Notes under the pieces: model-generated
Told to the model about the DNA's origin: nothing
The model's input: only the letters and a program-made list of their open reading frames with translations
Databases searched by the model: none
Made by a program: the position numbers and the translations under genes
Shown: piece by piece, positions 379 through 58,060 of the stretch
How the letters are laid out: the number at the start of each line of letters is the position of its first letter
Numbering within the stretch: the first letter of the stretch is position 1
Source: an uncultured Candidatus Saccharibacteria bacterium
GTDB taxonomy: Bacteria > Patescibacteriota > Minisyncoccia > Minisyncoccales > GWA2-38-27
NCBI GenBank assembly: GCA_964391095.1
Contig: CAYMJA010000001.1
Coordinates: 1 to 59,795, forward strand
Length of the DNA stretch: 59,795 nt
Reading direction: 5' to 3'

Positions 379-381
379 ATG

Positions 382-456
382 AGCCTAGAGGCGGAGTTGC
401 ACCGCCGACCTCGTCTTTACCAAAGACGTGCTCTAACTAAACTGAGCTATCTAGGC
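382..456 (-). tRNA. tRNA-Thr (anticodon GGT)
   Basis: Cloverleaf read by hand: acceptor GCCTAGA/TCTAGGC, anticodon loop TTGGTAA, T-loop region GGTGCAACTCC. CCA is not encoded. Confidence 0.85.
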
Positions 457-1053: not shown

Positions 1054-1138
1054 TGGGTGCGGTCGGAGTCGAACCGACGGGGCCTAAATAGACGACTGTT
1101 TTACAGACAGATCCCACCCCCTATGGGACTACGCACCC
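1054..1138 (-). tRNA. tRNA-Tyr (anticodon GTA), long variable arm
   Basis: Acceptor GGGTGCG/CGCACCC, anticodon loop CTGTAAA, long variable arm, T-arm GTCGG-TTCGACT-CCGAC. Confidence 0.85.
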
Positions 1139-4620: not shown

Positions 4621-7600
4621 ATGAAGTTTACCCACCTCCATGCCCATAGCCATTATAGCCTACTTGACGGTTTACCTAAAATCGATGAACTTTTAGATTA
4701 TACTAAAGAATTAGGAATGGACTCCTTAGCTTTAACCGACCACGGGGTTTTATATGGAGCAGTAGAGTTCTTTCAAAAAGCCAAGAAAAAAGGAATTAAG
4801 CCAATAATAGGGGTGGAAGCATATGTTGCTTTTGAGAAGATGACCCAGAAAAGACCAAATATAGATAATAAAAGATATCATTTGGTTCTGCTGGTAAAAA
4901 ACGAAGAGGGCTATAAAAATTTAGTCAAACTTATAACTAAAGCCCATTTAGAGGGTTTTTATTATAAGCCGAGAATAGACGAAAAACTTTTGGCAAAACA
5001 TTCTAAGGGTCTAATTGCTTTAACCGCTTGTTTGGCAGGAAAAATTCCTCGTTTAATTTTGGCGAAAAAATTTGAAGAAGCCGAAAATACGGCTCTAAAA
5101 TACCAAAATATTTTTGGTAAAGATAACTTTTATTTAGAACTTCAACATCATCCTCATATAGCGAAGCAAAAAATTGTTAACAAAGCACTAATCTCTATCT
5201 CAAAAAAATACGGCATTCCTTTGGTAGCAACAAATGATGTTCACTATCTAAAGCCAGAAGATGCCGAAGCTCAGGATACTTTGATGTTAATTAACACTGG
5301 AGCTGACCCCAATGACCCAGAAAGGGTAACTATGAAAGCAGATGATTTTTCTCTAAAAACTCCAAAAGAAATGATAGAAGATTTCAAAGAAGTTCCTGAA
5401 GCTATTGAGAATACACAAAAAATTGCCAATGCCTGCGATTTTCAATTTGAACTGGGGAAAGTCAAGCTACCCTATTTTGAAGTGCCTAATGGAAAAACCC
5501 CGAATGAATACTTAGAAGAACTTTGCTGCCAGGGATTAAAAAATCGATACGGCTCAAATCCCAGCAAAGAGATTATAGACAGATTTAATTACGAGCTTTC
5601 GGTTGTTAAACAAACTGGCTTTGCTTCTTATTTTTTAATAGTTCAAGATTTTGTTAATTGGGCTAAAGAAAACAGAATTATTGTCGGTCCAGGTCGAGGA
5701 TCAGTTGGAGGCTCTTTGGTAGCTTACTTATTAAACATTACAAACATCGACCCCTTAAAGCATAATCTCTTATTTCAGCGTTTTCTGAATCCCGAACGAA
5801 TCTCAATGCCTGACATTGACCTCGATTTTACCGACCGAAGAAGAGATGAGGTTATAGATTACATCGCCCAAAAGTATGGACGGGATAAAGTGGCTCAAAT
5901 TATTACTTTCGGAACAATGGCGGCCCGAGCAGTAATAAGAGATGTTGGCAGGGCTTCAAATTATACTTATAGTTACTGCGATAAAATCGCTAAAATGATC
6001 CCTTCTGGATTTAATTTAAATAGGGCTTTAAAAAACATTAAAGAGTTTAGGGATATTTATGAAACCGATGAACAGGCGAAAAAATTGATTGACTTAGCAA
6101 AAAAATTGGAAGGCGTAGCCCGCCACGCTTCAACTCACGCCTGCGGTATAGTAATATCTGAACAGCCCCTCTCAAACTTAATTCCCCTACAACATCCTAC
6201 TCAAAATGATAAAAATATCATTACCCAATACGAGATGCATTCAATTGAAAACCTGGGACTTTTAAAAATAGACCTTTTGGGCCTAAAAAATTTAACTGTT
6301 ATTGAAGACACTCTATCTAGAATTTATGTAGTTCGGGAAGGGAAAAAGGTTAACATTGAAAATATCCCTTTTGATGATAAAAGGGTTTATAAACTCTTAC
6401 AAAGGGGCGATACCACCGGTGTATTCCAACTGGAATCATCGGGTTTCCAAAGATATTTAAAGCAACTAAAACCCACTGAATTTGAAGATATTGTGGCTAT
6501 GGTTGCTCTTTATAGGCCGGGTCCAATACAGTTTATTCCAGATTACATTGACAGAAAACATAAAAGAAGAAAAATAGAATATTTACATCCAAAACTAAAA
6601 CCAATATTAGAAAAAACCCAAGGGATTTGTATTTTCCAGGAACAGTTGATGCAAATTGCTCAGCAATTAGCCGGTTTTACTCTTTCAGAGGCAGATGTTT
6701 TAAGAAAAGCAGTTGGAAAAAAAATAAAGAGTCTACTTTTAGAGCAAAAAGATAAAATGATGCAGGGGATGTTAAAAAACGGAATAAATAAAGAAGTCGC
6801 TCAAAAAATCTGGGAGTGGGTTTTGCCATTCGCTAAGTATGGCTTTAACCGCGCTCATTCAACTGCCTACGCTATTATTGCCTATCAAACTGCCTATCTA
6901 AAAGTTCACTATCCAGTAGAATTTATGGCTGCTCTTCTAACTTCTGAGAGGGCCGATATTGAAAGAATTGCTGTTTTAATTGAAGAATGCAAAAAAATGG
7001 GAATTGAAGTTCTTCCTCCAAATATCAACGAGAGTTTAAAAAACTTCACCGTTGTTCTTTCCCCCACCCCAATTTTGTCAAAGGTCCTTGATGGCAAGGC
7101 GATCGGGACCATTTTTCCTCGAAAAATGACGGGAAGCAAAATAAGATTCGGACTCTTGGCTATAAAAAATGTCGGCCAGAATATCATTGATGTTATTATT
7201 GAAGAAAGAAAAAATAACGGTTCTTTTCAAAGCATTGGAGATTTCCTTCAGAGGGTTAACTCAAAAGACCTAAACAAAAAATCTCTGGAAAGCTTAATTA
7301 GGACTGGGGCTTTCGATGGCTTAGCAGAAAGAAATCAACTTTTAGACAACTTAGAAAGGCTGCTTGAATGGGCACGAGAAACTCAAAAAGCAAAAATGAA
7401 TGGACAAAAAGGACTTTTTGATGATAATCCAAAATCTAACAAGAATGAAATCTCTCTCCTTCCTGCTCCTCCGGCTACAAATTTTGAAAAGTTAAATTGG
7501 GAAAAAGAACTTTTAGGTCTTTATGTAACCTCCCATCCTTTGGAGGAGTTCAAGGAAATTTTAGAAAAGAAAACTTTATCTCTAGTTAATATTAACAATG

Positions 7601-7866
7601 CTTTAATAAATAGTAGAATTAGAGTCGGCGGGATTATTTCTGGAATTAAAAAAATTATTACCAGAACTGGAAAACCAATGCTTTTTCTAAAATTAGACGA
7701 CCTAACAGATAAGACCGAAGTTGTTGTCTTTCCTGGAATAATAGAAAAAAATCCTGCGGTTTTCCAAGAAAATAAAATTGTTCTTATTGCAGGAAGAGTT
7801 GATAATCGAGACGGAAGTCCAAAAATAATAGCCGAACAAGTTGAAGAACTTATAAACACTTCTTGA
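4621..7866 (+). CDS. dnaE: DNA polymerase III alpha subunit
   Basis: PHP domain (HLHAHSHYSLLDG), palm and fingers, OB fold; 1081 aa. Confidence 0.97.
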   Translation: MKFTHLHAHSHYSLLDGLPKIDELLDYTKELGMDSLALTDHGVLYGAVEFFQKAKKKGIKPIIGVEAYVAFEKMTQKRPNIDNKRYHLVLLVKNEEGYKNLVKLITKAHLEGFYYKPRIDEKLLAKHSKGLIALTACLAGKIPRLILAKKFEEAENTALKYQNIFGKDNFYLELQHHPHIAKQKIVNKALISISKKYGIPLVATNDVHYLKPEDAEAQDTLMLINTGADPNDPERVTMKADDFSLKTPKEMIEDFKEVPEAIENTQKIANACDFQFELGKVKLPYFEVPNGKTPNEYLEELCCQGLKNRYGSNPSKEIIDRFNYELSVVKQTGFASYFLIVQDFVNWAKENRIIVGPGRGSVGGSLVAYLLNITNIDPLKHNLLFQRFLNPERISMPDIDLDFTDRRRDEVIDYIAQKYGRDKVAQIITFGTMAARAVIRDVGRASNYTYSYCDKIAKMIPSGFNLNRALKNIKEFRDIYETDEQAKKLIDLAKKLEGVARHASTHACGIVISEQPLSNLIPLQHPTQNDKNIITQYEMHSIENLGLLKIDLLGLKNLTVIEDTLSRIYVVREGKKVNIENIPFDDKRVYKLLQRGDTTGVFQLESSGFQRYLKQLKPTEFEDIVAMVALYRPGPIQFIPDYIDRKHKRRKIEYLHPKLKPILEKTQGICIFQEQLMQIAQQLAGFTLSEADVLRKAVGKKIKSLLLEQKDKMMQGMLKNGINKEVAQKIWEWVLPFAKYGFNRAHSTAYAIIAYQTAYLKVHYPVEFMAALLTSERADIERIAVLIEECKKMGIEVLPPNINESLKNFTVVLSPTPILSKVLDGKAIGTIFPRKMTGSKIRFGLLAIKNVGQNIIDVIIEERKNNGSFQSIGDFLQRVNSKDLNKKSLESLIRTGAFDGLAERNQLLDNLERLLEWARETQKAKMNGQKGLFDDNPKSNKNEISLLPAPPATNFEKLNWEKELLGLYVTSHPLEEFKEILEKKTLSLVNINNALINSRIRVGGIISGIKKIITRTGKPMLFLKLDDLTDKTEVVVFPGIIEKNPAVFQENKIVLIAGRVDNRDGSPKIIAEQVEELINTS

Positions 7867-7938
7867 TGATAAAAGGAGCTAAGCTCCTTAGGGTAACTTA
7901 TCGAAAAATTAAAATGAAAAAAATTAATTAAATGAATT

Positions 7939-9690
7939 ATGGTAAAAATTGAAACAATTCGTCATTCTTTAGCTCATATCTTGGCTTATGCGGTTCAGGA
8001 ATTATATCCCGGAACTAAATTCGGCATTGGGCCGGCTATTGAAAACGGGTTCTACTACGATTTTGATTTGCCAAAGAGTCTAACCCTTAAGGATTTGCCA
8101 AGAATAGAGAAAAAAATGCGGGAAATCATTAAGAAAGATTTGCCTTTTAAAAAAGAAATTATTTCGAAAGAAAAAGCAAAAAAAATATTCCGAGACCAAC
8201 CTTATAAGTTAGAATTAATAAAAGAAATTGAACGGGTCACACTCGTTAAAGTTTATCAGGTTGGAAATTTTATTGATTTATGTAAGGGACCTCATCTAAG
8301 GTCAACCCTTCAGTTACATTCAGGGCAAGCAAAAGAAGCAATTGATGCTTTCAAATTAACAAAAATTGCCGGTGCTTATTGGAAAGGTGATGAAAAACAG
8401 CCAATGCTCACTCGTATCTATGGAATAGCTTTTAAAACAAAAAAAGAATTGGCTCAATATCTTAAAATCCAAGAAGAAGCAGGAAAAAGAGACCATCGAA
8501 AATTAGGACAAAAATTAGAATTATTCAGCATCAACGAAGAAATTGGAGCAGGTCTTCCTCTGTGGCATCCAAGAGGAGCAATTTTACGAAAAATTATTGA
8601 AGATTATCTTTATAAAGAATTAATTTCTCAAGGCTATCAATGGATAGTCACTCCTCATATCGGCAAACTTTCTCTCTGGAAAACTTCAGGTCATTGGAAC
8701 TTTTACAGAGAAAATATGTACTCCCCTATTAAAATTGATGAAGAAGAATACCTGTTAAAACCAATGAATTGTCCTTTCCATATTAAAATTTATCAATCAA
8801 AAATTAGAAGTTATAAGGACTTGCCTATAAAATTCGCAGAATTAGGAACTGTCTATAGATATGAAAAATCAGGAGTTTTACATGGATTAACCAGAGTTCG
8901 GGGTTTTACCCAAGACGATGCCCACATCTTCTGCACCCCAGACCAAATGACAAAAGAACTAACTTCTATTTTACAATATGGTTTAAATATTCTAAAAACT
9001 TTTGGTTTTAAAGATTACGAAATTTATCTATCTACCCGCCCTAAAAAATTTATGGGTACATTAAAAATGTGGCAAAAAGCAACTAATTCCCTAAAATATG
9101 CTTGTGAAAAATTGAAATTAAAATATCAAGTAGATCCTGAAGGAGGAATTTTTTACGGTCCTAAAATTGATATTAAAATAAAGGACTCATTAGGAAGGCC
9201 TTGGCAGTGCAGTACTTTCCAAATCGACTTCAATTTACCAAAAGCTTTTAATGTTCTCTATATCGATAAAAAAGGTAAAAAGAAAGAGCCGATTATGATT
9301 CATAGGGCTTTATTGGGTTCTCTGGAAAGATTCATTGGAATTTTACTCGAACACTATGCCGGCGCTTTGCCAATATGGCTGTCTCCCATTCAAGTCTGGG
9401 TAATTCCAGTTGGCTCTCCTCATAAAAATTATGCAAAAGAAATATCTTCTCAATTCATCGAGAACAAGGTTCGATGTGAATTGAAAGATAAAAATGAAAC
9501 TGTCTCAAAGAAAATAAGAGAAGGAGAACTTCAAAAAATTCCCTATCTTTTAGTAGTTGGTGATAAAGAAATGAAAACAAAATCTGTTAGGGTAAGAGTA
9601 AGAGAAAAGGGCGACATTGGTAAGATGAAAATAGATAAGTTTATTGAAAAGATTAGAAAGGAAACAGAGAACAAAAAAACAACAAACTAA
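7939..9690 (+). CDS. thrS: Threonyl-tRNA synthetase (no N-terminal TGS domain)
   Basis: Starts at the editing-domain motif IRHSLAHILA...GFYYDF. Class II core and anticodon-binding domain are present. Confidence 0.95.
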   Translation: MVKIETIRHSLAHILAYAVQELYPGTKFGIGPAIENGFYYDFDLPKSLTLKDLPRIEKKMREIIKKDLPFKKEIISKEKAKKIFRDQPYKLELIKEIERVTLVKVYQVGNFIDLCKGPHLRSTLQLHSGQAKEAIDAFKLTKIAGAYWKGDEKQPMLTRIYGIAFKTKKELAQYLKIQEEAGKRDHRKLGQKLELFSINEEIGAGLPLWHPRGAILRKIIEDYLYKELISQGYQWIVTPHIGKLSLWKTSGHWNFYRENMYSPIKIDEEEYLLKPMNCPFHIKIYQSKIRSYKDLPIKFAELGTVYRYEKSGVLHGLTRVRGFTQDDAHIFCTPDQMTKELTSILQYGLNILKTFGFKDYEIYLSTRPKKFMGTLKMWQKATNSLKYACEKLKLKYQVDPEGGIFYGPKIDIKIKDSLGRPWQCSTFQIDFNLPKAFNVLYIDKKGKKKEPIMIHRALLGSLERFIGILLEHYAGALPIWLSPIQVWVIPVGSPHKNYAKEISSQFIENKVRCELKDKNETVSKKIREGELQKIPYLLVVGDKEMKTKSVRVRVREKGDIGKMKIDKFIEKIRKETENKKTTN

Positions 9691-21878: not shown

Positions 21879-22601
21879 TTACAACTTGTACAACTTGTTT
21901 TTAATCGATTTCCAAATCTTCTGATGAATTTCATCGGGAGACAGTAACCTATTGTTTTCTATGCATTCTATAACTTTAAATTCTCTTGGAAATTCTTTAG
22001 CTGTTTCCAAATAAGAACTAAGGGCTCGGGTTAAATGCTTTACATCTTTTTCGTGAATATCTCTTTTTTTCTTTCCCAGATAAGCTTTCCTTTTTTTCTT
22101 TTTTTCTTCATCGGTTATTTTGTGAGCTAATTTTAGAGAAAATTTAGGGGAAGTTTTGAGAATAAAAGTAAAGTTGGGCCTTGGAATTTTAAAAATTTCA
22201 TATTCCAGACAATATAACCATTTTAGAAATTCTTTTCTCTCTCTTTTATTACTTATTTTTCCTCCCTGGTGTCCAATGTTCGAAGCAATATATCTATCAG
22301 AAACAACTACTCTCCCCTCTCCAAGCCACTTCTTTATCTTAAAACTCGCATCATATCTATCGCAAGCATAAAAAACAGAGGCCCGATAAGGACCAACTTC
22401 CTCTGAACTGCCGTATTTACCATTTAGATATTCTTCAACAAGACCAGCCGATTTCTTTCCGTATTGAGGGAAATCTATTTTCATCACCCTATATCTTTCT
22501 TTTCTTAAATGTTTAATCAACAATTTAGTTTGAGTCGATTTACCTGACCCATCAAGTCCCTCAATAACTATAAATTTTCCTGGATGAGAGTTTTTATTCA
22601 T
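21879..22601 (-). CDS. tmk: Thymidylate kinase
   Basis: FIVIEGLDGSGKSTQ P-loop. The ATG at 22601 overlaps the stop of the upstream deaminase (ATGAATAA); the track ORF extends to 22649. Confidence 0.88.
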   Translation of the reverse strand: MNKNSHPGKFIVIEGLDGSGKSTQTKLLIKHLRKERYRVMKIDFPQYGKKSAGLVEEYLNGKYGSSEEVGPYRASVFYACDRYDASFKIKKWLGEGRVVVSDRYIASNIGHQGGKISNKRERKEFLKWLYCLEYEIFKIPRPNFTFILKTSPKFSLKLAHKITDEEKKKKRKAYLGKKKRDIHEKDVKHLTRALSSYLETAKEFPREFKVIECIENNRLLSPDEIHQKIWKSIKNKLYKL

Positions 22602-23127
22602 TTTTATTAGAATCTTGGTTTTGGTCTTCGCCATATTGATGCCGGTCATCTATAATGTCCTTCTCCTGCCAATCTTGAACCCAACCTTTAACATAGAATA
22701 TTTTTATCCCCTTGTCTTTAGTGGAACAAATTATCCTGTTTAAACCGGCGTTAATAATCATTTTTTTGCAGATAAAACAGGGGAAAGCATCAACATCTCT
22801 TTTGTTTTTAGGATTCGATGCATAGATATACATATCACCCCCTAAAAGGCTCACCCCAGCCCTGGCGGCATTGATAATACAATTTTGTTCTGCGTGAACG
22901 CTTCTGCAAAGTTCATATCTCTGACCATGAGGAATTTTTAATTTATCTCTTAGACAATAACCCCTCTCAAGGCTATCTTTTGTTCCCCTGGGGGCTCCAA
23001 TATATCCGGTAGAAATAATCTGATCGTTTCTAACAATAATAGCCCCGGCTTTTAATCTATAACAAGTGCTTCTTTCAGCAACTTCTTTGGCAATATTTAA
23101 ATAATATTCGTCTTTTGAGGGCCTCAT
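22594..23127 (-). CDS. dCMP deaminase (ComEB/Dcd family)
   Basis: HAEQNCI and PCFICKKMI zinc motifs. Confidence 0.9.
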
Positions 23128-23555
23128 AAATGCTTCTCTATTTCTATGCCCATATTCTTCGCTGTCCCTTCAATTATTTTCATTGCTTGTTCAATATCCT
23201 TAGTATTCAAATCTGGCATTTTCTTTTGGGCAATTTCTTTTAATTGGGCTTTGGTAATTTTAGCAACTTTAGTTTTATTTGGCACACCCGAACCCTTTTC
23301 AATCCCAGCTGCCTTTTTTAAAAGTTCAGATGCAAGGGGTTGTTTTATTCTAAATTCATAACTGTTGTCCTCATAAATTGTAATTACTACTGAAACAGTA
23401 AAACCTGATTGATTTTTTGTCATGTCATTAAACTCCTGGCAAAACTTAGCAATATTTATTCCATATTGAGCTAAAGTCGGCCCAACTGGTGGAGCTGGAG
23501 TGGCTTTACCTGCCGGGATTTGAAGTTTTACAATAGCTTTAATTTTTTTAGGCAT
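23124..23555 (-). CDS. rplK: 50S ribosomal protein L11
   Basis: [26 protein letters not shown]. Confidence 0.96.
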
Positions 23556-23635
23556 GTTATTGTGACTTCGTCACATAATTACTTCGTTCGGTTGAAGAAT
23601 GAAAGCAATCTTTCCTTCTTCTCCCTCACTTGTAA

Positions 23636-24181
23636 TTATAGTTTCTTTATCTGTAATGAGTCCAACTCTATGGGCGTATCTCTACCAAACATATTTATTA
23701 ATACTTTCAATTTTCCTCTTCCTTCATCTATTTTTGAAACTTTTCCATCAAAATCTTTAAAGGGGCCGTCAATAATTTTTACGCTATCTCCTACTTTAAC
23801 CTCAATTTTATATTGAGGCGTTTCCACTTCCACTATTTTCTTCAAGGTCTCAATTTCTTTTCCTGAAACCGGCACTGGTGTAGTCCCTACCCCGACAAAA
23901 CCAGTTACATTGGGAGTGTTTCTGACAATATACCAAGAATCATCAGTTACAATCATTTCAACTAAAACGTAACCAGGATAAATCTTTTCTTCGACCACTT
24001 TTCTTTTGCCATTCTTAATCTTAATTTTTTTCTCTTTTGGTACTAAAACGTTAAAAATCTTATCTCCCATATCAAGAGATTCAACCCTTTGCTTTAGGTT
24101 TTTGGCAACTGCATCTTCATATCCGGAGTAAGTATGGATGACATACCAATTTTTTTGCTGAGGTAAACGTTGCTTAGGCAT
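23636..24181 (-). CDS. nusG: Transcription elongation factor NusG
   Basis: WYVIHTYSGYE NGN domain and KOW motif (GDSVKIIDGPFKDFDGKV). Confidence 0.95.
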   Translation of the reverse strand: MPKQRLPQQKNWYVIHTYSGYEDAVAKNLKQRVESLDMGDKIFNVLVPKEKKIKIKNGKRKVVEEKIYPGYVLVEMIVTDDSWYIVRNTPNVTGFVGVGTTPVPVSGKEIETLKKIVEVETPQYKIEVKVGDSVKIIDGPFKDFDGKVSKIDEGRGKLKVLINMFGRDTPIELDSLQIKKL

Positions 24182-30390: not shown

Positions 30391-30488
30391 CTCCTTTTCT
30401 ATTCTTTCAATGTTTTCATTTAATTTTTTAATGTGCTTAATTTATAATGCTTAATTTATAATAAATTATGTAAGAAGTCAAATCTTTG

Positions 30489-30562
30489 CGGGGACGATGG
30501 GACTCGAACCCACAACCACTGGATCGACAATCCAGTGCTCTAACCAATTGAGCTACGCCCCC
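30489..30562 (-). tRNA. tRNA-Asp (anticodon GTC)
   Basis: GGGGGCGTAGCTCAATTGGTTAGAGC, anticodon loop TTGTCGA, T-loop TTCGAGT. Confidence 0.9.
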
Positions 30563-30573
30563 TTATCTGTATA

Positions 30574-30647
30574 TGCCGGTGGTGGGACTCGAACCCAACG
30601 ACCTAATGCTTATGAAGCATCCACTCTAACCACTGAGCTACACCGGC
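30574..30647 (-). tRNA. tRNA with CAT anticodon (elongator Met or Ile2), canonical
   Basis: GCCGGTGTAGCTCAGTGGTTAGAG, loop TTCATAA, T-loop TTCGAGT. Position 1:72 is paired and the anticodon stem is not initiator-like. Confidence 0.85.
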
Positions 30648-30648
30648 G

Positions 30649-30719
30649 TTGCGGGGCCGGGATGTGCGCCCGGGTCTCGAGGTTATGGGCCTCGCAAGAT
30701 ACTACTTCTCCACCCCGCA
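30649..30719 (-). tRNA. Atypical tRNA-like gene, CAT anticodon, degenerate D and T loops (71 nt)
   Basis: Cloverleaf: TGCGGGG-TG-GAGA-AGTAGTA-TCTT-G-CGAGG-CCCATAA-CCTCG-AGAC-CCGGG-CGCACAT-CCCGG-CCCCGCA-A. GC-rich and located 1 nt from the next tRNA. Confidence 0.5.
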
Positions 30720-30724
30720 ATTGT

Positions 30725-30753
30725 ATTATATTATAACACTTGGGAAAAATCAA
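30725..30753 (-). promoter_or_regulatory. Sigma70-like promoter for the tRNA cluster (GGGTTGATT-17-TATAAT)
   Basis: The -10 box ends about 5 nt before the first tRNA 5' end. Confidence 0.6.
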
Positions 30754-30779: not shown

Positions 30780-30823
30780 GGCTATGACAAAAATCCCGCG
30801 ATCGCGGGATTTTTGTCATAGCC
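30780..30823. repeat. Perfect 44-nt palindrome (22-bp stem, GATC centre)
   Basis: GGCTATGACAAAAATCCCGCGA|TCGCGGGATTTTTGTCATAGCC. Confidence 0.9.
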
Positions 30824-57033: not shown

Positions 57034-57112
57034 AGTATCAAGTATCAAGTATTAGGTATTAAGTATTTTTTTAAATTTAAATTATACTTAATACTTGACA
57101 CTAAATACTTAA
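57034..57112. repeat. Inverted heptamer arrays (AGTATNA)n / (ATACTTN)n in the rplO-secY spacer
   Basis: AGTATCA AGTATCA AGTATTA GGTATTA AGTAT - AT loop - ATACTTA ATACTTG ACACTAA ATACTTA. Confidence 0.9.
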
Positions 57113-57541
57113 TGCTATCTTTCCGCTGACTTTTTCTATTTTTTCTTTGGCAACTTTTGAAACATCACAATTCTGAATAGTTAGAGCTTTAGTTATTTCG
57201 CCTTTACCCAAAATTTTCACTTTAGGTATCTTACCTTTCATTTTACGGATTATTTTCTTTTCAAGCAAAATTTTCGGAGTAACCAGCTCTAAATTATTAA
57301 ATTTCTTATCTAAAACCTCGACATTAACAACTGCTAAATTTTTTTCTTTTGGCTTGAATCTATAGCCTCTTAATTTTGGATATCTTTTTATCAATCCTCG
57401 GATAATCGGAACCAACTTTCTGCCAGCCCGTGATTTCTGACCCTTAACCCCTCTCCCAGAATAAGTCCCTCGCTTTCCGCCACGACCAATTCGTTTCTTC
57501 TTCTTTAATTTATGTTTGGGACGTAATTGATGCAATTGCAT
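57101..57541 (-). CDS. rplO: 50S ribosomal protein L15
   Basis: MQLHQLRPK...RIGRGGKRGTYSGRGVKGQKSR. Confidence 0.93.
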   Translation of the reverse strand: MQLHQLRPKHKLKKKKRIGRGGKRGTYSGRGVKGQKSRAGRKLVPIIRGLIKRYPKLRGYRFKPKEKNLAVVNVEVLDKKFNNLELVTPKILLEKKIIRKMKGKIPKVKILGKGEITKALTIQNCDVSKVAKEKIEKVSGKIALSI

Positions 57542-57565
57542 AATTTTTGCTTCGCAAAACACTGA

Positions 57566-58060
57566 TTAATACGGATTTCGGCGCAGCTTTTCTAAAGCTC
57601 TGATAGTAACCTTAGCATTATTTAATTTATTCCTTGTTTTACCCAATACTTTTGAGGAAATATCTTTTATCCCGGCTAAGGTGCAAATAACTCGAACTAC
57701 CCCCCCTGCTACCAATCCTCTTCCTTTTCTTTGGGGTTTAAGTAAAATTTTAGCTGCTCCAAATTTTGCTTCCACTTGATGAGAAATTGTTCCATTGACA
57801 ATTGGTACCTCTATTAAATCCTTCTTTGCCTTCCGTGTTGCTTTTTCTACTGCTTGAGCAACATCCATTCCTTTGGCAACGCCTAATCCAACCTTTCCTT
57901 TTCTATTTCCAGTTACTACTACCGCCCGAAACCTAAAACGCCGACCCCCAGCGGTCATTCGTACAACTCTTGCCAGACCAAGTAACTTGGACTCAAACTC
58001 CTCCTTCTTTCTCTCAACCCTAAATCCTCTTTTTGTTATTTTGTTTTTTTGAATAACCAT
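57566..58060 (-). CDS. rpsE: 30S ribosomal protein S5
   Basis: VVRMTAGGRRFRFRAVVVTGN..GKVGLGVAK. Confidence 0.95.
   Translation of the reverse strand: MVIQKNKITKRGFRVERKKEEFESKLLGLARVVRMTAGGRRFRFRAVVVTGNRKGKVGLGVAKGMDVAQAVEKATRKAKKDLIEVPIVNGTISHQVEAKFGAAKILLKPQRKGRGLVAGGVVRVICTLAGIKDISSKVLGKTRNKLNNAKVTIRALEKLRRNPY

Follow-up and report, generated by a model that had tools for sequence, protein, structure and literature searches.

A probable initiator tRNA with a coupled switch of its elbow nucleotides in a Patescibacteria contig

Contig CAYMJA010000001.1 of an uncultured Candidatus Saccharibacteria bacterium (59,795 nt; the whole of this stretch is called the window here) carries a 71-nt tRNA gene which, judged from its sequence, is very probably the working initiator tRNA of the organism, of the tRNAfMet type. 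It would have descended from a canonical bacterial initiator whose D-/T-loop elbow was altered, with G18·Ψ55 giving way to A18·G55 and, in a sub-lineage, U54·A58 giving way to C54·C58 by way of C54·A58. The gene lies as follows.

30649..30719, minus strand: initiator tRNA(fMet)-type gene, 71 nt, anticodon CAU, no CCA encoded (sequence read directly)

Read from 30719 to 30649 on the minus strand, the gene (UGCGGGGUGGAGAAGUAGUAUCUUGCGAGGCCCAUAACCUCGAGACCCGGGCGCACAUCCCGGCCCCGCAA) forms a cloverleaf free of gaps and without a single stem mismatch. The 7-bp acceptor arm consists of U1-A72 and six G/C pairs (UGCGGGG/CCCCGCA) and is followed by U8 and G9, a 4-bp D stem (GAGA/UCUU) with the D-loop AGUAGUA (A14 G15 U16 A18 G19 U20 A21), and G26. 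The anticodon stem of 5 bp (CGAGG/CCUCG) includes the pairs A29-U41, G30-C40 and G31-C39 and carries the loop CCCAUAA with C33, CAU, A37 and A38; a variable loop of 4 nt (AGAC), a T stem of five G/C pairs (CCGGG/CCCGG) with the loop CGCACAU (C54 G55 C56 A57 C58 A59 U60), and the discriminator A73 complete the molecule. A preliminary description of this locus gave no strand, and the strand is minus; the stems, CAU anticodon and 4-nt variable loop that it described, as well as the T-loop, C33, the weak U1-A72 pair and the two of three G:C pairs of the anticodon stem (G30:C40 and G31:C39), are all read directly. It also held that the D-loop had lost the G18G19 pair, which is right for G18 and wrong for G19, and its term "degenerate" for the loops does not fit, as the elbow appears rebuilt with G19-C56 retained. 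The Rfam tRNA model RF00005, applied to a 501-nt slice under permissive filters, scores positions 1-71 at 47.0 bits (E = 5e-9; the gathering score is 29 bits). The expectation that standard finders may miss the gene was borne out: ARAGORN makes no call for it in the window, and neither in gathering nor in E-value mode does cmscan return it from the whole window, where the speed filters lose it. A contig from another Joint Genome Institute (JGI) sample (L241; L numbers here denote retrieved loci and contigs) is 100% identical across the whole 459-nt intergenic region, so the gene is not an assembly error.

The tRNA bears most of the features by which tRNAfMet is recognized, among them CAU with A73, A11:U24, and G2-C71/C3-G70/G4-C69. 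Its nucleotides 2-12 (GCGGGGUGGAG) and 66-72 (CCCCGCA) are the strings that retrieve the canonical initiators of Priestia, Furfurilactobacillus and others, and nt 73 (A) is likewise as in canonical initiators. It shares 74% identity with the P. megaterium initiator and 74-76% with initiators of the candidate phyla radiation (CPR) that keep the canonical elbow, and 53% with the CAU tRNA adjacent to it. A family covariance model (R1) with its filters off gives it 96 bits. An unfiltered search of the 60-kb window with the same model found no other initiator-like sequence, and no second initiator was found in the fetched loci of the family of initiators that share G55.

Relatives were collected by two pattern scans, and all figures from them are among the matches listed. 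Scan A, of species-representative genomes, used the pattern GCGGGGTGGAG–N18-22–CCCATAA–N26-29–CCCCGCA, which fixes the initiator acceptor and D stem and C33 and is blind to the D- and T-loops. Scan B, of metagenomes, used CNCATAA–N13–GCGCANNNC–N4–CCCCGCA, in which C54-G55-C56-A57 is fixed and the remainder is free. Scan A returned canonical initiators from Priestia megaterium, Furfurilactobacillus curtus, Clostridia, Omnitrophota, Caldisericia, Uhrbacteria, Moranbacteria, Portnoybacteria and others, together with a large Patescibacteria group whose 71-72-nt initiators have the form CGCGGGGUGGAGAAGUAGUAUCUUGCGAGGCCCAUAACCUCGAGACGnnGGUGCAAUUCCnnCCCCCGCAA. The closest relatives by tRNA and synteny bear the names Nealsonbacteria, Gribaldobacteria, Paceibacterota, Minisyncoccia and Parcubacteria, and the A18/G55 elbow spans the named Parcubacteria lineages Nealsonbacteria, Gribaldobacteria, Falkowbacteria, Paceibacterota and Minisyncoccia. 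Scan B recovered the exact window tRNA in at least five other contigs (L156, L173, L178, L191 and L236), at least nine other distinct 71-nt sequences with the T-loop CGCAC-N-U, and further CGCAA-N-U forms.

The flanking genes of the five contigs with an identical tRNA are 72-78% identical to those of the window and represent at least three further genome contexts; in L173, L191 and L236 identity falls to ~71% over tRNA-Met/Asp, the 71-nt initiator being unchanged. In a gap-free alignment of 48 distinct 71-nt G55-type initiators, pairing is complete (100%) in the D, anticodon and T stems, and 11 pairs have changed on both sides. The covariation score of this alignment is 0.445, as compared with 0.123±0.010 for shuffles (0/500 reach the observed value) and ≤0.10 for slid partners, so that the proposed check for covariation at related CPR loci came out in favor of the gene. 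RNAalifold recovers the cloverleaf from the 48 relatives unaided. Acceptor pairs 2-7 are invariant, but they are fixed by the search patterns. A11:U24 is present in 44/48 sequences and A29-U41 in 40/48; A72 never varies, and position 1 may be C, A or U, so that 1:72 is mismatched in 42/48. These comparisons indicate that the window initiator is under purifying selection. C33 was found in the initiators of >120 species in Scan A, whose pattern fixes C33; cultured bacteria with C33 initiators are Priestia megaterium (L022), Parelusimicrobium proximum (L093) and Furfurilactobacillus curtus (L098, two copies). Because C33 is present in cultured bacteria outside the CPR, it is not peculiar to the CPR, and both C33 and A29-U41 are ordinary for the clade.

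What sets the gene apart is its elbow, which lacks the canonical set of nucleotides (G18 G19; T54 Ψ55 C56 R57 A58). Among the 116 parseable initiators of Scan A, 67 combine a GG D-loop with a UUC T-loop, 49 combine AG with UGC, and none is mixed. The preliminary description had proposed co-evolution of the two loops, and these counts agree with it, as does the repetition of the same coupling in a tRNA-Thr and a tRNA-Cys (see below). Where D-loops of 7 nt are compared, AGUGGUA occurs with UUCAAAU or UUCGAAU and AGUAGUA occurs with UGCAAUU, a difference of exactly G18→A plus U55→G; the window D-loop is likewise one change, G18→A, away from the AGUGGUA of its canonical sister lineages. The G55 T-loops of Scan B are always accompanied by an AG D-loop and never by GG. 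With mixed combinations absent, A18·G55 seems to have taken the place of G18·Ψ55.

A second change is superimposed on the first at positions 54 and 58, where the series runs from U·A (UGCAAUU) through C·A (CGCAAAU, CGCAACU) to C·C (CGCACAU, in the window). The combination U54/C58 was not seen in any of the 49 AG/UGC initiators of Scan A, which were collected blind to the loops. The C54/C58 subset comprises at least ten distinct sequences that are 70-97% identical, in which the T-loop is always CGCAC-N-U, the D-loop stays AG(U/C/A)AGUA, and every stem is paired with many compensatory changes. The elbow of a canonical tRNA combines a contact of U55 with G18 and a pair of C56 with G19, R57 being sandwiched between them; U54·A58 stacks on G53-C61, and 59/60 are flipped out (PMC7912444). 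The positions that build this stacked elbow in canonical tRNA, G19, C56, R57, Y60 and G53-C61, are those that the initiator retains, its T-loop keeping C56, A57, U60 and the closing pair G53-C61. Because G19, C56, A57, U60 and G53-C61 are kept, the elbow seems to have been rebuilt rather than lost, and A18·G55 and C54·C58 would preserve the T-loop fold and the L-shape. An alternative reading of the T-loop as a GNRA tetraloop (GCAA at G55-A58 in most relatives) was considered and rejected, since positions 54/59, which would close it, do not pair consistently (U·U, C·C, U-A, U·G); the window has GCAC at 55-58, unlike the GCAA of most relatives, which also counts against it.

A second initiator family with G55, very abundant among the matches of Scan B, was noticed in at least ~89 metagenome contigs (L121-L240), some of them 200-444 kb long with ~39% GC; examples are L126:3344-3413, L136, L146, L163 and L164. 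Its members have a short D arm, in which GUGU/GCAC forms the stem, U11:A24 takes the place of A11:U24, and the loop (ACAGU) has 5-6 nt. The T-loop reads CGCAACU or CGCAAUU, position 33 is U, and a tRNA-Ile(UAU) is often near. The great majority of the other tRNAs in the fetched G55-type loci are canonical, the T-loop being UUC in 209/263 parsed or unparsed calls (two groups), and 34 elongator tRNAs near G55-family initiators, for instance tRNA-Met and tRNA-Ile(UAU), have the T-loop UCCGA, with C55, and a normal GG D-loop. Position 55 can thus be U, C or G in these organisms, a hint of relaxed or absent Ψ55 synthesis.

The genomic setting of the gene also points to an initiator. The elements around it are these.

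30574..30647, minus strand: canonical tRNA with anticodon CAU (elongator Met or Ile2), GG D-loop, T-loop UUCGAGU (ARAGORN; Rfam 63.3 bits)
30488..30562, minus strand: canonical tRNA-Asp(GUC), third gene of the operon (ARAGORN; Rfam 73.4 bits)
30725..30753, minus strand: sigma-70-type promoter match, -35 TTGATT at 30753-30748, 17-nt spacer, -10 TATAAT at 30730-30725 (promoter scan, 10/12)
30780..30823, minus strand: perfect 20-bp hairpin with a T-rich tail, terminator-like (sequence identical in L241)

The canonical CAU tRNA, placed by ARAGORN at 30647..30574, begins 1 nt (C) beyond the discriminator base of the initiator, in agreement with the distance given in the preliminary description; it has a strong G1-C72 pair and none of the initiator features. 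The gene order gatCA–[fMet–Met(CAU)–Asp]–pheST is common to the window and its relatives, and Met(CAU), mostly followed by Asp, lies directly behind the initiator in 49/66 G55-type loci with enough downstream sequence. CPR initiators with a canonical elbow occupy the same fMet–Met–Asp slot (L012 from Portnoybacteria, L016, L049, L095 and L103), which indicates that the G55-type gene is the in-situ descendant of the canonical initiator and not an added paralogue. The earlier suggestion of an unusual initiator tRNA is therefore well supported by A11:U24, by its 74% identity with the initiator of P. megaterium and by this shared slot. The consensus promoter that had been noted directly upstream is the 10/12 match listed above, and its role as a promoter is predicted from the sequence. 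Its -10 hexamer ends 5 nt before nt 1, and the initiators of L156, L173, L178, L191 and L236 and of the diverged L125, L179, L134 and L197 are preceded by an identical -35/-10 at this 5-nt distance. The hairpin is predicted to end the upstream gene and to set the tRNA operon apart as a transcription unit of its own, in which the initiator would be the first of three co-transcribed tRNA genes (initiator–tRNA-CAU–tRNA-Asp) under their own sigma-70 promoter.

Several points weigh against the initiator identification or temper the evidence for it. The anticodon stem of a canonical initiator has three G:C pairs in a row (29-41, 30-40 and 31-39), whereas 29-41 is A-U here, and 1:72 in the window initiator is a weak Watson-Crick U-A pair, not the C1×A72 mismatch. 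In a single-sequence fold the cloverleaf is not preferred (minimum free energy -28.3 vs -28.0 kcal/mol for the cloverleaf, z = -1.5), although single-sequence thermodynamics is uninformative for this tRNA. Conservation of the acceptor with C33, or of C54-G55-C56-A57, is by construction, because the patterns fixed these positions. The association between D- and T-loops, highly significant on its face (P = 6.5e-34, Fisher's exact test), comes from a test that ignores phylogeny.

A different reading of the elbow itself, within the initiator identification, would make it an adaptive, initiator-specific identity or anti-elongation signal comparable to A54/A60 of eukaryotic initiators, and not a compensated replacement that is nearly neutral. 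Among the fetched loci, initiators are indeed almost the only carriers of the A18/G55 elbow, with >160 initiator occurrences vs 2/~350 other tRNAs, and the elbow persists across several named Parcubacteria lineages. The loci were, however, sampled around initiators, so that the tRNA sample is biased; close CPR relatives cope with canonical elbows, and the same elbow is found in two elongators. One of these is in the window.

381..456, minus strand: tRNA-Thr(GGU) with an A18/G55 elbow, D-loop AGUUUAGUUA (A18 G19), T-loop UGCAACU (ARAGORN; Rfam 62.2 bits)

This tRNA-Thr was missed by the whole-window Rfam gathering run. The other is a tRNA-Cys(GCA) in the Endomicrobia metagenome-assembled genome JANXDG010000050.1 (L101, minus strand, offset 7229 of the reverse-complemented locus), with the D-loop AGUAGAUA and the T-loop UGCAAAU, so that the A18/G55 switch is also present in an elongator outside the CPR. 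The double change G18→A/U55→G thus recurs independently in the window tRNA-Thr and in the Endomicrobia tRNA-Cys. Since the elbow is found in elongators, it cannot by itself exclude the use of EF-Tu or the A site, and its presence in tRNA-Thr suggests a tolerated alternative elbow instead of a strictly initiator-specific signal. We thus consider the adaptive reading unlikely.

It is very unlikely that the 71-nt gene is an elongator tRNA-Met or a tRNA-Ile2 (with lysidine), with the initiator being the adjacent CAU tRNA or one encoded elsewhere. The CAU anticodon, the Watson-Crick U1-A72 pair, the two of three G:C pairs and the A18/G55 elbow shared with an elongator tRNA-Thr would all be compatible with it. 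However, the acceptor stem, UGGAG and the 3' CCCCGCAA match canonical initiators, as the 74% identity to that of P. megaterium does overall; A11:U24 is present; the family is mismatched at 1:72 in all but six of its 48 sequences; the adjacent CAU tRNA, with its strong first pair, has no feature of an initiator; and canonical initiators of sister lineages sit in the slot of the 71-nt gene.

The reading as a decaying pseudo-tRNA, that is, a redundant initiator copy with drifting loops, is likewise very unlikely. It could draw on the joint alteration of several near-universal loop nucleotides, on the rejection of the gene by ARAGORN and filtered cmscan, and on a single-sequence fold no better than shuffles. 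Against it, the same 71 nt stand in at least three other genome contexts with flanks ~25% diverged, the loop variant is held in 10 sequences of 70-97% identity with compensated stems, and the promoter and operon position are conserved with no mismatch in any stem; a genuinely broken copy, as in a Pseudomonas locus (L084), looks otherwise. Non-conservation of the locus had been named as a sign of a pseudo-tRNA, and the locus proved conserved, with identical 71 nt across diverged genomes and gatCA/pheST synteny; given this conservation, the pseudo-tRNA reading appears already largely refuted. The L084 copy, in Pseudomonas sp. ML96 (minus strand, offset 6483 of the reverse-complemented locus), is initiator-like, with a truncated T-loop and a 2-nt insertion in the anticodon loop.

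Diversion of the tRNA to a non-ribosomal or regulatory role has a precedent in the non-proteinogenic tRNAGly of Staphylococcus aureus, and the elbow is non-canonical here too, yet G19-C56 is kept, all initiator determinants are conserved, the canonical initiator has been replaced in situ and not supplemented, and neither the window nor the fetched family loci hold a second initiator, which leaves this explanation scarcely any probability.

If the 71-nt tRNA is the working initiator, its parts can be assigned to the steps of initiation. CAU and A73 would be retained for methionylation by MetRS, and G2-C71/C3-G70/G4-C69, the weak 1:72 pair and A11:U24 would be read by the formyltransferase and in the discrimination of initiator from elongator. 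G30-C40 and G31-C39 would serve the 30S P site, where the tRNA would be used. In the elbow, G55 would make the sharp loop turn instead of Ψ55; with G55 and C54 present, the tRNA presumably cannot carry Ψ55 or T54. At the 3' end, the RNase P cut at the next tRNA would leave A73-C74, and the CCA-adding enzyme would then complete the terminus.

The distance from promoter to gene allows a further, more speculative proposal. In the window, in the relatives with an identical tRNA and in about 12 other distinct loci, 5-6 nt lie between the -10 hexamer and nt 1; besides the window, the short spacing is found in L037, L042, L048, L072, L075, L125, L134, L156, L173, L179, L191, L197 and L216, and all U1 initiators of the CPR G55 family belong to this class. 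Transcription usually starts at the 7th nucleotide after the -10 hexamer, with a pyrimidine preferred at -1 and a purine at +1. With a spacing of 5-6 nt this rule predicts a start at G2 or nt 1 (at G2 for the 5 nt of the window), and little or no leader for RNase P. The initiator might then be a leaderless primary transcript without an RNase P cut, its mature form lacking nt 1 and carrying a 5' triphosphate with A72 unpaired, and the elbow, freed from RNase P and from the T54/Ψ55 enzymes, might have been rebuilt into a lineage-specific initiator identity. We regard this scenario as improbable. Were it true, a leaderless start would be a new route to the "unpaired 1:72" signature of initiators and would account for the drift of position 1 between C and U, which is confined to loci with short spacing.

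The window (~35% GC) encodes GatCAB, PheST, GyrB, MreB, ThrRS, AlaRS, TrmD, MiaA and ribosomal proteins. The genome is a CPR/Patescibacteria genome of the Parcubacteria type. At 22594-24181 and 57101-58060 the order is nusG-rplK-dCMP deaminase, with rplA not adjoining rplK, and S5 followed by L15 with no L30. A link between the elbow variant and loss of uL1 (no rplA beside rplK) was considered and rejected, because L103, a relative with a canonical-elbow initiator, shares the order nusG-rplK-deaminase (6371-7991). No Pfam match to fmt, def or truB was found among nearly all window open reading frames (ORFs) of ≥96 aa, which tells nothing about the rest of a genome ~10× larger than the window. 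An exact-protein look-up of the upstream 179-aa ORF gave no match, and that of PheS gave near-identical contigs only. At 1054-1138 (minus strand) ARAGORN reports an 85-nt "tRNA-Phe(aaa)" with the anticodon loop CUGUAAA and a long variable arm, which is more likely a class-II tRNA-Tyr(GUA) than a tRNA-Phe; it has no hit with the general Rfam tRNA model, and its score of 31.7 bits with the model for tRNA-Sec stays below the threshold. Between this tRNA and the tRNA-Thr lies a 200-aa ORF (451-1053) without a Pfam match.

Few nucleotides in biology are as conserved as G18·Ψ55 and T54·A58, and RNase P, the L1 stalk, uL5, T-boxes, TruB and TrmA all read the surface of the elbow. If the 71-nt gene is the initiator, a set of Patescibacteria lineages would initiate translation with a tRNA that has neither contact. 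No tRNA modification is said to be more universally conserved than Ψ55 (PMC7912444). The change G18→A/U55→G would amount to a natural and repeated "isosteric replacement" experiment on the tRNA elbow, and with 71 nt and four substitutions the gene would offer a compact system for testing which elbow nucleotides initiation needs. The C54/C58 form escapes ARAGORN and filtered covariance scans, so that genomes of these bacteria may be annotated without an initiator tRNA, and initiators missed in this way can skew tRNA-based inferences of completeness or coding. Full-text literature searches for initiator or elbow variants in CPR/Patescibacteria and for A18/G55 found no description of this form, which is not proof that it is unpublished.

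It is instructive to set the window initiator beside known tRNAs. Canonical bacterial tRNAfMet (the E. coli metZWV/metY type; P. megaterium L022 and F. curtus L098) has the same GCGGGG acceptor with A72/A73, the same U8-G9-G10-A11-G12 and A11:U24, CAU with A37 A38, and G30-C40, G31-C39, G53-C61, C56 and G19, with 74% identity overall and, in sister CPR lineages, the same operon slot. The window tRNA differs from it by A18 for G18, by C54 G55...C58 for T54 Ψ55...A58, by a variable loop of 4 instead of 5 nt, by U1-A72 instead of C1×A72, by A29-U41 instead of G29-C41, and by C33, though the last is found in some canonical initiators too. C33 also occurs in plant and fungal initiators. For the anticodon stem there is a parallel in the Mycoplasma-type initiators, studied in the Varshney laboratory, which reportedly have AU/GC/GC, two of the three G:C pairs, and are said to keep canonical D- and T-loops; the corresponding A29-U41/G30-C40/G31-C39 is found in 40/48 G55-family sequences.

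Two further systems have modified elbows. The eukaryotic initiator tRNAiMet has a T-loop substructure with A54·A58 and A60 (PMC7566577, PMC7912444). Like it, the window tRNA has abandoned T54 and kept an intraloop 54·58 pair; however, the eukaryotic pair is a purine-purine A54·A58 with Ψ55/G18 retained, whereas the window has C54·C58 with G55/A18, and the eukaryotic T-loop is initiator-specific, whereas the CPR A18/G55 elbow occurs in tRNA-Thr as well. The non-proteinogenic tRNAGly of S. aureus lack G18, G19, U55 and C56 and escape EF-Tu (PMC4574755). These cell-wall pentaglycine donors share with the window initiator the loss of G18 and U55, but they are not ribosomal and are without G19/C56, whereas the window initiator keeps G19-C56 and the initiator determinants. 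Neither the eukaryotic tRNAiMet nor the staphylococcal tRNAGly has the A18·G55 or the C54·C58 of the window initiator.

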